A stretch of DNA of 41,714 bases from a plasmid. Numbering within the stretch: position 1 is the stretch's first letter; the number at the start of each line of letters is the position of its first letter. A program made the position numbers and the translations under genes. The stretch lies in the NCBI RefSeq assembly GCF_055900595.2, contig NZ_JBVWEU010000004.1, one strand, 5' to 3'. A model generated the notes under the pieces. That model did not search any database. It saw only the letters and a list, made by a program, of their open reading frames with translations, and was not told where the DNA came from. Shown here piece by piece: positions 34,065 through 40,637 of the stretch.

Positions 34065-34884
34065 GGCACTGTTGCAAAGTTAGCGATGAGGCAGCCTTTT
34101 GTCTTATTCAAAGGCCTTACATTTCAAAAACTCTGCTTACCAGGCGCATTTCGCCCAGGGGATCACCATAATAAAATGCTGAGGCCTGGCCTTTGCGTAG
34201 TGCACGCATCACCTCAATACCTTTGATGGTGGCGTAAGCCGTCTTCATGGATTTAAATCCCAGCGTGGCGCCGATTATCCGTTTCAGTTTGCCATGATCG
34301 CATTCAATCACGTTGTTCCGGTACTTAATCTGTCGGTGTTCAACGTCAGACGGGCACCGGCCTTCGCGTTTGAGCAGAGCAAGCGCGCGACCATAGGCGG
34401 GCGCTTTATCCGTGTTGATGAATCGCGGGATCTGCCACTTCTTCACGTTGTTGAGGATTTTACCCAGAAACCGGTATGCAGCTTTGCTGTTACGACGGGA
34501 GGAGAGATAAAAATCGACAGTGCGGCCCCGGCTGTCGACGGCCCGGTACAGATACGCCCAGCGGCCATTGACCTTCACGTAGGTTTCATCCATGTGCCAC
34601 GGGCAAAGATCGGAAGGGTTACGCCAGTACCAGCGCAGCCGTTTTTCCATTTCAGGCGCATAACGCTGAACCCAGCGGTAAATCGTGGAGTGATCGACAT
34701 TCACTCCGCGTTCAGCCAGCATCTCCTGCAGCTCACGGTAACTGATGCCGTATTTGCAGTACCAGCGTACGGCCCACAGAATGATGTCACGCTGAAAATG
34801 CCGGCCTTTGAATGGGTTCATGTGCAGCTCCATCAGCAAAAGGGGATGATAAGTTTATCACCACCGACTATTTGCAACAGTGCC
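34065..34884 (-). mobile_element. IS26 (820 bp)
   Basis: 14-bp terminal inverted repeats GGCACTGTTGCAAA; no 8-bp target duplication. Confidence 0.95.
34117..34821 (-). CDS. tnpA: IS26 transposase Tnp26
   Basis: 234 aa from MNPFKGRHFQRDIILWAVRWYCKYGISYRE. Confidence 0.95.
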   Translation of the reverse strand: MNPFKGRHFQRDIILWAVRWYCKYGISYRELQEMLAERGVNVDHSTIYRWVQRYAPEMEKRLRWYWRNPSDLCPWHMDETYVKVNGRWAYLYRAVDSRGRTVDFYLSSRRNSKAAYRFLGKILNNVKKWQIPRFINTDKAPAYGRALALLKREGRCPSDVEHRQIKYRNNVIECDHGKLKRIIGATLGFKSMKTAYATIKGIEVMRALRKGQASAFYYGDPLGEMRLVSRVFEM

Positions 34885-35916
34885 ATAACGACTGCGTTTG
34901 CGAATGATCCTGTGCCCCAGAAAGATAAAGCCGTCATTAACATGGGTGATTTTAGTCTTATCCATGTTCAGCCTGAGTTTCAGACTGCCTTCGAGCACAC
35001 CCCGACACTCCTCCCTGATGGCTTCCGCCTGTGCTTTGGTGCCTTTGACGATGGGGACAAAATCATCGGCATAGCGGCAGTACGCCACCGCGGGTTTCCA
35101 CTGCCAGTTTTCTCTGACCGCCGTACTTCGGCCCCGTTGGATACTGTTATTCCAGTACCACCGATCTTTTCTGGCTTTCCCGCTCAGGTAGCGCTCATGC
35201 AGGTATTGATCGAACTCATTCAGCATGATGTTCGATAATAGCGGCGATATAACACCGCCCTGTGGCACACCTTCACTGGCCGCCCGAAAGAGACCGACAT
35301 CGATATGTCCCGCCTTGATGGTTTTCCACAGCAGAGTCATGAAACGTGCGTCACTGATCCTGCGGCGTACAGCCTTCATCAGCAGTCGATGATGTACGGT
35401 GTCGAAGTAACTGGACAGGTCGCCTTCAATCACCCAGCGTCCCCGGGTTTCACCGCAGTCTGTGAGCTGTAATTTCACCGTGCGGATCGCGTGGTGGACA
35501 CTGCGCTCAGGCCGGAAGCCATATGAGAGCGTATGAAAATCACTCTCCCATATCGGCTCCATCGCCATCAGCATGGCCCGCTGAACAATACGATCCCGCA
35601 ACGCGGGGATACCCAGTGGTCGCAGTTTGCCGTTGCTTTTAGGGATGTAAACCCGTCTGGCGGGCAAGGGCTGGTAGTGGCCTGAGAGTAATTCATCCCT
35701 GAGGATTTGCAGCTCAACAGCCAGTCTGGCCTGTAGCATTGTTTTGTTCACGCCATCAACGCCGGGGGTATGCGCCCCCTTTGATGAAAGCGTGATCCGC
35801 GCCGCTTCAGCCAGCCATTCTGGTTGTGTTATCAGACGCAGCAGCCGTTGAATCCGTAGGGACGGATCGGTGGCTGCCCATGTGGCAAGCTTGCGTTGCA
35901 TTTCGCTGATTATCAA
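34885..35916 (-). pseudogene. Group II intron reverse transcriptase/maturase, C-terminally truncated by IS26
   Basis: RT domains 0-7 with YADD motif (CRYADDFV); the frame runs into the IS26 end. Confidence 0.8.
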
Positions 35917-36974: not shown

Positions 36975-37259
36975 TCAGTCGGGCTCCCTTGCAAAGTACC
37001 GCGCTGCCTTTTTCAGAATATCCCGCTCTTCCTCAGTGCGTTTAAGCTGTGCTTTCAGCCTGAGAATTTCTGTTCTGGCATCCAGTAAATCCTGTGCCTG
37101 CTGTCCACTGTTGTCAGGCTTAACAGCCCGGAGCCATTTATATAGGCTGTGCGCCGACACGCCGAGCCGTTCAGATACTTCAGCAATAGAATAGCCCCGC
37201 TCGGTGATCTGGCGGACGGCCTCTTCCTTAAATTCAGGGGTAAAACGTGATGTGCCCAT
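36975..37259 (-). CDS. IS3-family transposase OrfA (HTH)
   Basis: 94 aa, MGTSRFTPEFKEEAVRQITERGYSIAEVSERLGVS. Confidence 0.85.
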   Translation of the reverse strand: MGTSRFTPEFKEEAVRQITERGYSIAEVSERLGVSAHSLYKWLRAVKPDNSGQQAQDLLDARTEILRLKAQLKRTEEERDILKKAARYFAREPD

Positions 37260-37278: not shown

Positions 37279-37358
37279 ACTATAGGGCAGATTTGTCTAC
37301 GGGCTCGGGGTCACTCCAACTATAGGGCAGATTTGTCTACGGGCTCGGGGTCACTCCA
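37279..37358. repeat. Perfect 40-bp tandem duplication between the IS3-family IR and orfA
   Basis: ACTATAGGGCAGATTTGTCTACGGGCTCGGGGTCACTCCA occurs twice back-to-back (37279-37318, 37319-37358). Confidence 0.9.
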
Positions 37359-37399
37359 TTAAGTGATAACAGGTGTCTGGAAATATAGGGGCAAATCCA

Positions 37400-37461
37400 G
37401 TCGGGAGGATGCGTGATCTGATCCTTCAACTCAGCAAAAGTTCGATTTATTCAACAAAGCC
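37400..37461 (-). mobile_element. IS903-family left-end fragment (62 bp), inverted relative to 11717-11981
   Basis: Reverse complement matches the first 62 bp of the IS903 copy, with one mismatch. Confidence 0.75.
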
Positions 37462-37502
37462 CATTCATGTCTGTCGTCTCCGTCACGGAAATTATTACGG
37501 GA

Positions 37503-37919
37503 TTATTTCACCCAGTCTTCCAGCACCAGGCCCGGGACCCGCGCAAACTCTCTCACATTGTTCGTCACCAGGATGGCGCCCGCCGCGATGGCGTGCCCGG
37601 CAATGGCCGTGTCATTCGGGCCGATCGGCGTCCCGGCTAGGCGCAGCGCCACCCGGATGTCCGTCGTGGCGTCCACCGCGGCGCGGTCCCAGGGCAGGAC
37701 GGCATCGAGGCGCGCGCAGAACGCGTCGACCAGCTGAATATGGCGCGGCGAGGCCTTCGGGCCGGTGGCGCCGAAGCGCATCTCGGCATATGTCACGGCC
37801 GAGACCACGATGCGATCACCGCGCAGCACCGCCTGCTCCAGGCGCTTCAGCACCGCTGCCGGCTGCTCGCGCATGATGAACGAGCAGATGTTAGTATCGA
37901 GCATCCAGGTTTTCTTCAT
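37503..37919 (-). CDS. vapC: VapC PIN-domain toxin
   Basis: 138 aa; PIN acidic residues (MLDTNI...); overlaps vapB by 4 bp. Confidence 0.85.
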   Translation of the reverse strand: MKKTWMLDTNICSFIMREQPAAVLKRLEQAVLRGDRIVVSAVTYAEMRFGATGPKASPRHIQLVDAFCARLDAVLPWDRAAVDATTDIRVALRLAGTPIGPNDTAIAGHAIAAGAILVTNNVREFARVPGLVLEDWVK

Positions 37920-38146
37920 GGCTCAAAACGTCCTTCATCGCTGACCACATCCTCACGCTCCGCCATAAAGTCCGGATCGGCCCTGTCCAGCTGCGCGAAC
38001 GAGCCCCAGGTCGGCCGGACGGGACGCAGAATGATGCTGTCCCCTTCCCGGACGATCTCCAGCTCGCTGACGCCGTCAAAATCCAGGTCCCGGGGCAGAC
38101 GGATGGCGCGGTTATTGCCGTTTTTAAATATCGAAACTGTGCGCAT
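37916..38146 (-). CDS. vapB: VapB antitoxin (AbrB/SpoVT family)
   Basis: 76 aa, MRTVSIFKNGNNRAIRLPRDL; closely resembles plasmid VagC/MvpT antitoxins as I recall them. Confidence 0.85.
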   Translation of the reverse strand: MRTVSIFKNGNNRAIRLPRDLDFDGVSELEIVREGDSIILRPVRPTWGSFAQLDRADPDFMAEREDVVSDEGRFEP

Positions 38147-38719
38147 GGTTTTTCCTCATATGCTGAGTGTGCCAGGGAGTATTCCCGCATAGGTGAAGTA
38201 TATGCCTGCAAGCCCGGCTTGTATAGGTGTTACATATGCAGATGGTAGGTATATGCGTATGCTTTGCCTATGCAGATGCCCGGCATATGGATATGTTACA
38301 CCTATGTTGGTTTCTCACTTTTCCCGCTCAGATCCGAAAAAAGGCAGTTCCGGATCTGATTCAGCCCCGCCGGCGCGCAGCGGCCCGGAAACACAAGATG
38401 TAGCGGTGTTTCCAGCTGTCAGTGACCATATATGTTGTGTCCCTCCCCTGCCCCGTGACCGGCCGCTCACCACCCTGAAAGGGCGCTGTGGTTATTCCGT
38501 GTGCGTGGTACACTTCCGGAAACTGTGGAATAACATAAAAGTCGGATCCGGCCAGAGCGGCCGTCAGGTAATTTAATTACGTTGTTATATGGCTGCTTAT
38601 TATTTTAGTATGTGAAAATCACTCTAGTGAAAGTCACTGTCACGACAGAGTGGCACTCATCTGACGATGATTGAGGTGTGGTAAAATTGCACGGCTAACT
38701 ATTCAACTGAGGAAAGGAC

Positions 38720-39070
38720 ATGTTTACTGCATTCAATGAGAGAAATGATTTCAGTTATGCTTTTGAAAAAATCCGTAATGCGATTTCCGCGCCAGGAGAA
38801 AATAATCTTTATGCTGCAACAGAATTAGGTCTTGGCATTCTGCTCCGTAAATACGAGCAGTTTCGCCAGGAACTGGATGCGGCCGGTGAGCTGGGAAACT
38901 GGGAATATGATCTCGATACCTACAATCACTGTATTGCGGTGCTGCAACGTTACTTCACCGGCAATCCATCCGGACTGACAGAACGTGATGCCCGGATTTA
39001 CAGCCATTACCTGCAGACTGAGCACAAAAGGTTTGTGAAACTGGCTGAAGAGCTGGCTGCCGGCCGCTGA
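38720..39070 (+). CDS. Hypothetical protein (116 aa), first gene of an uncharacterised operon
   Basis: Clean ORF; no recognisable motif; acidic, predicted soluble. Confidence 0.5.
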   Translation: MFTAFNERNDFSYAFEKIRNAISAPGENNLYAATELGLGILLRKYEQFRQELDAAGELGNWEYDLDTYNHCIAVLQRYFTGNPSGLTERDARIYSHYLQTEHKRFVKLAEELAAGR

Positions 39071-39120
39071 CTACGGACAGAGGGCGGGATTTCTCAGGAA
39101 TATAAAGGGGTAAATGATCA

Positions 39121-39864
39121 ATGACTGATATACAGGCCGCAACTGAGAGTATAGTTGCTGCGACATCCCATCCGGTTTCCGTACAGCTGATTAATCAAGG
39201 GGCGGGGATCTGGGGAAACGTGGCAACCGGGCTTATCACTGGCCTGCTTACTGGGGGTATAACACTCACTGGCATCTGGCTGACACATTATTTCACGCTT
39301 AAGCGTGAGAGACAGGCGTCAGAAGATAAAATGAAAAAGGAACTGCATTACATTGCCACCGAGTTGGTATTCATGCTTGAACGGTATGCTGAGGGTTGTT
39401 TCCGGGTTGTGACGGATGACGGCCAGGATGATGATGCCCCCCAGCCTGAGAGAAAAGCTGTCACGAATTACCCTGAACTGAATCTGATCGATGTCTCCGG
39501 TGACTGGCGGACTTTAGAGCCACGTCTTATGTATCGCATCCGTGAACTGCCGGTGCTCCAGGATGAGGCCCACAGGGCAATTGCATATGCCGCCGAATAC
39601 TCCGACCCTCCTTGGCATAAGGACTATTTCAGGGAACGGCAGTATCAGTTCACGCGCTTGGGCATCAACGCTGTCATTCTTGCCGTCCGTCTGCGCAAGG
39701 CAACCGGGATGCCCGAAACACGTCTTACAGGTCATGATGAATGGTCTGCAGTTTCCGTGTTTCGTAAAGTCTGGAGGCGCGAAAGAGCCCTGCGCGCTGC
39801 TGAAGCTACCCGCAACAGGGAGTGGAATCAATTAGTGATACCTGATGGAATGTCAAACCAATGA
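39121..39864 (+). CDS. Hypothetical membrane-anchored protein (247 aa)
   Basis: One predicted transmembrane helix (GNVATGLITGLLTGGITLTGIWLTHYF) followed by a charged domain; stop overlaps the recombinase start (ATGA). Confidence 0.55.
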   Translation: MTDIQAATESIVAATSHPVSVQLINQGAGIWGNVATGLITGLLTGGITLTGIWLTHYFTLKRERQASEDKMKKELHYIATELVFMLERYAEGCFRVVTDDGQDDDAPQPERKAVTNYPELNLIDVSGDWRTLEPRLMYRIRELPVLQDEAHRAIAYAAEYSDPPWHKDYFRERQYQFTRLGINAVILAVRLRKATGMPETRLTGHDEWSAVSVFRKVWRRERALRAAEATRNREWNQLVIPDGMSNQ

Positions 39865-40637
39865 GCGGCCTCTTATCATATTCTCACCCGCAGCAGCCGG
39901 CGCAAATGCCGGTGGCCATTGACTATCCCGCCGCGCTGGCCCTGCGCCAGATGGCGCTCGTTCAAGATGAACTACCGAAATACCTGCTGGCACCGGAAGT
40001 CAGCGCCCTGCTCCATTATGTGCCCGATTTGCACCGCAAGATGCTGCTGGCAACCCTCTGGAACACCGGCGCACGTATCAACGAGGCGCTGGCGCTGACC
40101 CGGGGGGATTTTTCGCTGGTGCCACCGTATCCGTTCGTGCAGCTGGCCACGCTTAAGCAGCGCACCGAAAAAGCGGCCAGGACAGCCGGCCGAGCTCCCG
40201 CCGGTAGCCAGGCTCATCGTCTGGTTCCGCTTTCCGATCACCACTACGTCAGCCAGCTGCAGATGATGGTGGCCACCCTGAAAATTCCGCTGGAAAGACG
40301 CAACAAGCGTACCGGCAGAACAGAGAAAGCCCGCATCTGGGACATCACCGACCGGACAGTACGGACCTGGATTGGCGAAGCGGTTGAAGCGGCCGCCGTC
40401 GACGGGGTGACATTCTCGGTGCCGGTCACCCCGCATACGTTCCGCCACTCCTACGCGATGCATATGCTGTATGCCGGCATACCACTGAAGGTTTTGCAGA
40501 GCCTGATGGGCCACAAATCGATTAGCTCGACGGAAGTCTATACGAAGGTGTTCGCACTTGATGTTGCTGCGCGGCATCGAGTTCAGTTTCAGATGCCCGA
40601 AGCGGATGCGGTAGCCATGCTGAAAGGGAATATTTAA
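39861..40637 (+). CDS. Tyrosine site-specific recombinase (Xer/ResD-like; possible plasmid multimer resolvase)
   Basis: 258 aa; conserved C-terminal catalytic region HTFRHSYAMHML ... LMGHKSISSTEVYTKV (R-H-R-Y family). Confidence 0.8.
   Translation: MSGLLSYSHPQQPAQMPVAIDYPAALALRQMALVQDELPKYLLAPEVSALLHYVPDLHRKMLLATLWNTGARINEALALTRGDFSLVPPYPFVQLATLKQRTEKAARTAGRAPAGSQAHRLVPLSDHHYVSQLQMMVATLKIPLERRNKRTGRTEKARIWDITDRTVRTWIGEAVEAAAVDGVTFSVPVTPHTFRHSYAMHMLYAGIPLKVLQSLMGHKSISSTEVYTKVFALDVAARHRVQFQMPEADAVAMLKGNI

Follow-up and report, generated by a model that had tools for sequence, protein, structure and literature searches.

The vagCD toxin-antitoxin locus described here is carried by a plasmid contig (NCBI RefSeq assembly GCF_055900595.2, contig NZ_JBVWEU010000004.1), of which a stretch of 41,714 nucleotides, called the window below, was analysed. 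Both genes are on the minus strand: vagC (vapB; 37916-38146, 76 aa), encoding an antitoxin of the AbrB/SpoVT/MazE type, comes first, and vagD (vapC; 37503-37919, 138 aa), encoding a PIN-domain toxin, comes second. The stop codon of vagC and the start codon of vagD share four base pairs in an ATGA sequence at 37916-37919. Upstream of vagC lies an array of short repeats, followed by an rfsF-type recombination site and by a divergent operon ending in the recombinase gene resD. An overlapping vapB/vapC pair had been proposed in the original prediction, made by a model from the letters of the sequence, and family searches confirmed it as a type II toxin-antitoxin system of the VapBC type.

VagD matches Pfam PIN (E = 1.3e-14). 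VagC matches Pfam MazE_antitoxin (E = 4.5e-9) and NCBIfam TA_anti_VapB (score 92.5, cut-off 60), as well as the solved VapB chains 6ifm_B and 5k8j_A. The features of VapBC systems that can be examined in a sequence are all present: an overlapping operon with the antitoxin gene in front, a PIN domain with its acidic residues and an N-terminal DNA-binding domain of the AbrB/SpoVT type in the antitoxin. The nearest solved structures of VagD are the enteric tRNA(fMet)-specific VapC enzymes of Shigella and Salmonella (9h6a, E = 1.7e-29; 3tnd), and the acidic residues D8, E46, D103 and E124 of VagD are aligned with D7, E42, D98 and E119 of these enzymes. D7A is a non-toxic VapC variant (PMC3378870). 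Judged by its scores, VagD is a close relative, not a scored member, of the tRNA(fMet)-specific VapC equivalog, and tRNA(fMet) is its likely, putative target RNA.

Many IncR plasmids, among them E. fergusonii pEFER and pTRE-1611, match the vagCD region over 1.3 kb at 99.3-99.4% identity, and in pTRE-1611 the two genes are annotated as vagC and vagD. The VagC (VapB) and VagD proteins of the S. Dublin virulence plasmid are 96% and 87% identical, respectively, to those encoded in the window, and it was on that plasmid that vagC and vagD were reportedly named. The position of vagCD upstream of resD agrees with published IncR plasmids (PMC7707992). By homology, the locus is the already-named vagCD, a VapBC-family type II toxin-antitoxin system of the IncR plasmid backbone. 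Post-segregational killing by vagCD is plausible by homology.

The region upstream of vagC is rich in the pentamer TATGC and its complement GCATA. Eight copies are found in 38147-38310, compared with 0.32 expected from the frequency in the whole window (about 25-fold enrichment), which makes this the densest 164-bp stretch for the pentamer in the entire 41.7 kb. The region also contains an inverted repeat with arms of 40 nt each (38223-38262 and 38266-38305), which are 75% complementary and separated by a 3-nt gap. Folded as single-stranded DNA the inverted repeat has a predicted energy of -20.8 kcal/mol (z = -4.8), a value equalled by none of 200 shuffled sequences. TATGC repeats and an imperfect inverted repeat beside the gene pair, as claimed earlier, are thus both present.

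Base self-identity in the region has maxima at lags of 17 (0.43) and 34 (0.535), and Tandem Repeats Finder reported a period of 17 at 38233-38289. The array could be resolved into contiguous 17-bp units of the form CAKATG-N5-YATATG at 38188-38306. Six units are intact, starting at 38188, 38222, 38239, 38256, 38273 and 38290, and one is degenerate. Because CATATG is palindromic, the array reads as a direct and an inverted repeat at once, which accounts for the inverted repeat described above.

To score the units, a position weight matrix (PWM) was refined on a set of 287, taken from 85 non-identical regions upstream of vagC. The matrix carries 0.7-1.9 bits at each of the hexamer positions (1-6 and 12-17), and 0.06-0.27 bits at positions 8-10, the core of the spacer. 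The unit nearest to vagC, U1 (CATAGG-tgaag-TATATG, 38188-38204), scores 21.3 bits. It is followed by the degenerate unit (CCTGCA-agccc-GGCTTG, 38205-38221), which scores below 8 bits and preserves the 17-bp register between U1 and U3 (TATAGG-tgtta-CATATG, 38222-38238; 16.7 bits). The distal units U4-U7 (38239-38306) have scores of 20.1, 17.2, 22.0 and 16.6 bits and are spaced by exactly 17 bp; their hexamers are conserved and all of their five-base spacers are different. When the whole 41.7 kb was scanned with the PWM, the six sites of 16.6-22 bits at 38188-38306 were accompanied elsewhere by only three weak ones (9-12.5 bits).

Three other features of the sequence deserve mention here. A second cluster of TATGC/GCATA (five copies) is located at 40433-40481, inside the region that encodes the conserved catalytic part of ResD. 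It reaches only 12 bits as a unit, and we judged it a coding-driven chance occurrence and not an operator. An open reading frame (ORF) on the plus strand, 38193-38576 (127 aa), has a counterpart that some plasmid records list as a hypothetical protein. We take this ORF for a probable false gene call, since it spans the array and rfsF, and the length of the array varies in 17-bp steps between plasmids, which would shift the reading frame. An Rfam scan of 37300-38800 yielded as its sole match a chance-level hit of a microRNA model to the palindromic array (23 bits against a gathering threshold of 95, E = 0.12); by Rfam, there is no RNA element in this interval.

The distribution of the unit among related loci ties it to vagC. 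We collected 80 vagCD loci from species-representative genomes and pooled them with plasmid loci. Among the 85 non-identical vagC upstream regions, 84 contain at least one unit within approximately 100 bp of the vagC start codon. Distant homologues (61-70% VagC identity) from Pseudomonas, Azotobacter, Xenorhabdus, Photorhabdus, Endozoicomonas and Alcaligenaceae, with unrelated chromosomal flanks, have one or two near-perfect CATATG-N5-CATATG units. In loci of the Pseudomonas type one unit is situated just upstream of the ribosome-binding site and the second 38-40 bp farther out. No unit is present in the 400 bp to the left of ten rfsF sites that lack vagCD, namely those of F, pSLT and eight other plasmids. 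The linkage in 84 of 85 regions, the distant chromosomal homologues and the ten unit-free rfsF sites together indicate that the motif belongs to vagC and not to the neighbourhood. The 17-bp units are almost certainly operators of VagC or of the VagC-VagD complex, and the support for a binding site is as strong as sequence evidence gets. The earlier suggestion that the repeats form an antitoxin operator is strongly backed by this comparison, in which a unit was found upstream of vagC homologues down to 61% identity.

A consensus scan found a single sigma-70-like match on the vagC strand within the intergenic array. This predicted promoter, PvagCD (38197-38225, minus strand), consists of the -10 hexamer TATACT (38202-38197), a spacer of 17 nt and the -35 hexamer TATACA (38225-38220). 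The predicted -10 falls within U1, which would also span the transcription start site inferred from it; the predicted -35 is overlapped by U3, and the degenerate unit forms the promoter spacer. The putative 5' leader of vagC would thus extend over 38147-38187 (minus strand) and includes a Shine-Dalgarno sequence, GAGGA, read from the sequence as the complement of 38153-38157. Inspection by eye of the two-unit chromosomal vagCD loci revealed TATACT and TRTACA hexamers at the same positions relative to the units. With U1 over the -10 and start site and U3 over the -35, binding to these units would autorepress PvagCD.

The best explanation of the locus, and one that we consider probable on its sequence features, is a vagCD module in which six tandem operator units serve autorepression of PvagCD. 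VagD would act as a PIN-domain RNase related to the initiator-tRNA-cleaving VapC toxins of enteric bacteria and would be neutralised by VagC. By homology with VapBC systems of the AbrB type, VagC dimers are expected to read the CATATG-like hexamers. The two hexamers of a unit, 11 bp apart, would be separated by approximately one helical turn and lie on one face of the helix. Such a pair would fit the two AbrB domains of one VagC4-VagD4 hetero-octamer placed in adjacent major grooves, with VagD dimers bridging them. Complexes on U1 (-10 and start site) and on U3 (-35) would occlude the promoter. Units U4-U7, which reach to approximately -115 upstream of the promoter, would most likely raise occupancy and tighten repression, or keep an extra complex on the plasmid. 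If VagC were lost, for example after plasmid loss, the operon would be derepressed and VagD freed.

This mechanism is modelled on known VapBC systems. In Shigella MvpAT and S. enterica LT2 VapBC, too, the antitoxin is of the AbrB type, and its partner is a PIN toxin in which all four acidic residues are present. In AbrB-type VapBC the octamer (VapB4C4) binds two operators, vapO1 and vapO2, over the -10 and the -35 (PMC3378870; PMC3384007), and for Salmonella VapBC one octamer per operator was described (PMC3378870). The vapBC2 promoter of pSLT likewise has two bipartite, ATATG-rich sites of the GGATATG type. In contrast to the two operators of the enteric systems, the present locus has six intact units in strict 17-bp tandem, extending to approximately 115 bp upstream, and the similarity between VagC and Shigella VapB is weak (E = 4e-4). 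In the DNA-bound structures of C. crescentus VapBC1 and R. felis VapBC2 every half-site is short and pseudo-palindromic and is recognised by one VapB dimer; those of C. crescentus VapBC1 are approximately 10 nt apart in adjacent major grooves (PMC5389673), and in R. felis VapBC2 the half-sequence is A(A/G)TAT. The half-sites of both structures fit CATATG-N5-CATATG. However, both structures contain single operators, and contiguous tandem units are not described in those papers.

Several observations weigh against this reading. VagD scores below the NCBIfam cut-offs for tRNA(fMet)-specific VapC (NF047863, 120.3 against 140; NF010285, 110.3 against 143), and predicted PvagCD matches the consensus at no more than nine of 12 positions. 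Units of the window itself seeded the PWM, which biases the unit counts towards the operator model. A 17-bp spacing may be too tight for octamers to occupy all units at once, and the 34-bp periodicity, stronger than that of 17 bp, hints that alternate units are the working set. We found no open-access study of a VagC operator or of VagC autoregulation. Finally, long arrays are almost confined to the neighbourhood of rfsF, with the last unit fixed about 40 bp away, which leaves room for a role linked to recombination instead of repression.

This last point concerns the unusual feature of the locus, the length of its array. Among VagC homologues at least 85% identical, the median number of units is six at loci with a left rfsF arm within 300 bp (n = 36; range 1-11) and two at those without a nearby rfsF arm (n = 13; Mann-Whitney p = 1e-6, with related loci treated as independent). 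More distant VagC homologues have zero to two units. Successive units are exactly 17 bp apart in 161 of 207 pairs and 34 bp apart in 26. From the start of the last unit to the rfsF arm the distance is 39-41 bp in 33 of the 36 rfsF-adjacent loci.

The distal units or the whole array could accordingly be accessory DNA of the rfsF/crs site (crs being the cis-acting site of the S. Dublin virulence plasmid pSDL2), in which a protein-bound array helps ResD to form a productive or resolution-selective synapse. The contrast between six and two units and the fixed distance from the rfsF arm speak for such a role, as does the same layout (vagCD, array, rfsF, ccdAB, rsd) on the S. Dublin virulence plasmid. 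In 1991 Krause and Guiney reportedly described crs of this plasmid as a set of eight direct repeats, incomplete and 17 bp long, with inverted repeats after them. We nevertheless regard this explanation as quite unlikely. The repeats do not accompany the rfsF core wherever it is present: none of the ten vagCD-free rfsF sites, including those of F and pSLT, has a unit within 400 bp, so ResD and rfsF need no array in general. The identical motif occurs at chromosomal vagCD loci that lack rfsF, the units are unlike the rfsF arms that a recombinase would recognise, and shared ancestry of one plasmid lineage could account for the association of array length with rfsF.

The variable length of the array also allows that only the promoter-proximal units are functional, the distal ones being neutral products of slippage or unequal crossing-over. 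Nearly all rfsF-adjacent loci have 4-11 units, the arrays differing by steps of 17 or 34 bp between two fixed ends, and two units suffice in every chromosomal homologue. In one locus, L040, near-identical 34-bp copies (lag-34 identity 0.82) indicate recent amplification. In the window, however, the distal units match the proximal ones in score (16.6-22 bits), and their spacers have all diverged while the hexamers were kept; this pattern suggests selection on the hexamers and is not that of recent neutral copies. Neutral expansion is therefore, in our estimate, an unlikely origin of the distal units.

Being short tandem repeats in a maintenance region of the plasmid, the units bring to mind replication iterons or a partition centromere. 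Plasmid F has its oriV1 next to rfsF. The iterons of IncR plasmids are, however, 36-bp tandem repeats tied to repB (PMC7707992; PMC9412624), and the array has a period of 17 bp. In many genera the units are found with chromosomal vagCD homologues, and they are absent from IncR plasmids that lack vagCD and retain repB. As the units track vagCD and not repB, and their period is 17 and not 36 bp, we rejected an iteron or centromere function as highly improbable. Autorepression of PvagCD through tandem operator units is the explanation that we retain.

To the right of the array, 21 bases separate the last unit from the rfsF-type tyrosine-recombinase site (38328-38359). These bases form a pyrimidine-rich tract (38307-38327); a CT-rich tract of approximately 20 bp is found to the left of the core in most of the rfsF sites compared, including the unit-free sites of F and pSLT. 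The 28-bp core AGATCCGAAAAAAGGCAGTTCCGGATCT (38330-38357) has inverted arms and a variable centre, and its inverted repeat (I5) has 12-nt arms, 92% complementary and 8 nt apart. The core is homologous to rfsF of F, AGATCCGAAAACCCCAAGTTACGGATCT, with the same arms. Among the 23 distinct rfsF cores in the compared set the arms are conserved and the centres are variable. In some vagCD loci (L006, and the first site in L007) the left rfsF arm alone is present, fused to unrelated DNA, as if by recombination at a secondary site.

The mosaic boundary at which the vagCD module meets the resD operon falls exactly at rfsF. BLAST homology with plasmids free of vagCD begins at 38318-38330, and one IncR plasmid without vagCD is 97% identical from rfsF onward, with a SIR2/ATPase pair in the place of vagCD. 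The name rfsF-resD has been used in IncR plasmids, and in those without vagCD homology was reported to stop at rfsF (Oliva et al., PMC9412624). Module exchange at rfsF is thus documented for IncR plasmids (PMC9412624), and module switching there has also been described for IncI1 plasmids (PMC8004404).

The divergent operon (38720-40637, plus strand) comprises an ORF of 116 codons (38720-39070), an ORF of 247 codons (39121-39864) and resD (39861-40637). The resD product is a tyrosine recombinase (Pfam Phage_integrase, E = 2.3e-18), 92% identical to F ResD over residues 12-255. The 247-aa ORF, whose end overlaps the start of resD by 4 bp, corresponds to the PADLOC phage-defence candidate PDC-S67 (E = 3.6e-45), and the sole match of the 116-aa protein is to a PHROG of unknown function; neither of these two ORFs has a Pfam or NCBIfam match. 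In the original prediction this operon was called unknown, and the repeats were thought to be regulatory DNA that it might share with vapBC. Neither proposal held. The operon is the known multimer-resolution operon of the IncR backbone, built of rfsF, variable cargo and resD (PMC9412624). Plasmids that have neither vagCD nor the repeats retain the operon's own upstream region, beginning at rfsF. Moreover, no unit of at least 8 bits was found by the PWM scan between 38307 and the first ORF at 38720, and with rfsF and approximately 360 bp of unit-free DNA between the array and that ORF, the array is not shared regulatory DNA.

Between rfsF and the operon lies a conserved non-coding block of approximately 250 bp (38360-38603), which accompanies the resD operon. 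Sampled IncFIB, IncFII and IncR plasmids match it at 78-85% identity, and in pSLT and F its homologue lies upstream of ccdA. An inverted repeat within the block, ACACAAGATGTA / TATATGTTGTGT (38391-38402 and 38429-38440), is shared with F and pSLT. The block may serve resolution as accessory DNA, or it may be an element related to oriV1. The operon has weak promoter candidates of its own; one of these on the plus strand, TTGTTA-18 nt-TAGTAT, was noticed within 38582-38638, upstream of the 116-aa ORF. Right after it are the direct repeats GTGAAAATCACT and GTGAAAGTCACT, 15 bp apart (38612-38638), and these could be the operator of the resD operon.

Relatives of this arrangement differ in both the array and the cargo. 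The S. Dublin virulence plasmid has vagCD, a 17-bp array, an inverted repeat similar to rfsF and a divergent operon ending in rsd/resD. It has, however, eight scored units and a distinct vagC leader of its own, its cargo is ccdAB with two ORFs instead of the 116-aa and 247-aa ORFs, and the centre of its rfsF is ATTTCTGGTGG, compared with AAAAAAGGCAG in the window. The F rfsF-ResD and pSDL2 crs-Rsd systems share with the present one the arms of the 28-bp core, and the recombinase identity to F ResD given above; in F, pSLT and other plasmids, however, the 17-bp array is no part of rfsF. The ccdAB toxin-antitoxin system is found in the same rfsF-resD neighbourhood in F and pSLT, but to the right of rfsF, inside the resD operon, whereas vagCD is to the left. 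It also differs in its proteins, a ribbon-helix-helix antitoxin (CcdA) and a gyrase poison (CcdB). The F ccdAB operator has many antitoxin sites across approximately 100 bp; CcdA and CcdB assemble into open alternating chains, whereas VapBC complexes are closed octamers.

In a small, unsystematic sample of rfsF sites without vagCD (L007, L009, L010, L012 and L094-L097) the left flank is occupied by other genes of toxin-antitoxin or defence-like character. These include pifC/pifA in F, SIR2 with an ATPase, an 'anti-phage transmembrane ATPase', an NAD+ phosphorylase of the RES family, an Abi protein with a TrlF ATPase, a CAAX protease and DUF3800/korC. Conceivably the left side of rfsF is a slot for toxin-antitoxin and anti-phage cassettes swapped by ResD, vagCD being one of them, and the expanded array, approximately 40 bp from the core, is adapted to this position; we offer this as a tentative and rather doubtful proposal. 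If it were true, a large complex of toxin-antitoxin proteins and DNA could insulate the promoter of the cassette or influence recombination at rfsF.

Traces of mobile elements were seen on the vagD side. The complement of 37440-37461, GGCTTTGTTGAATAAATCGAAC, 41 bp past the vagD stop codon, resembles a terminal inverted repeat of IS903/IS102. Farther out, at 37280-37359, there is a near-perfect 40-bp tandem duplication (39 of 40 bases identical; CTATAGGGCAGATTTGTCTACGGGCTCGGGGTCACTCCAA twice) just outside the start of a transposase ORF similar to those of the IS3 family (36975-37259, minus strand); it looks like a duplicated terminal repeat of an insertion sequence. A truncated IS102 beside vagCD has been described (PMC9412624), and the stretch at 37440-37461 fits it. 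The 352-aa product of the ORF at 34858-35916 (minus strand) looks in its sequence like a group II intron reverse transcriptase, and this ORF would be a candidate for retA of the IncR backbones (PMC7707992).

The vagCD locus itself is ordinary and already annotated; the operator definition and the association of array length with rfsF add modestly to what is known. vagCD is one maintenance module of the IncR and IncF resistance and virulence plasmids of Klebsiella, E. coli and Salmonella. The defined unit, CATATG-N5-CATATG, offers a concrete target for footprinting and allows operators of the VagC type to be recognised across Gammaproteobacteria and beyond, as the two Alcaligenaceae loci in the set illustrate. 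The growth of the array from two to as many as eleven units beside rfsF bears on how toxin-antitoxin systems are regulated on mosaic plasmids.

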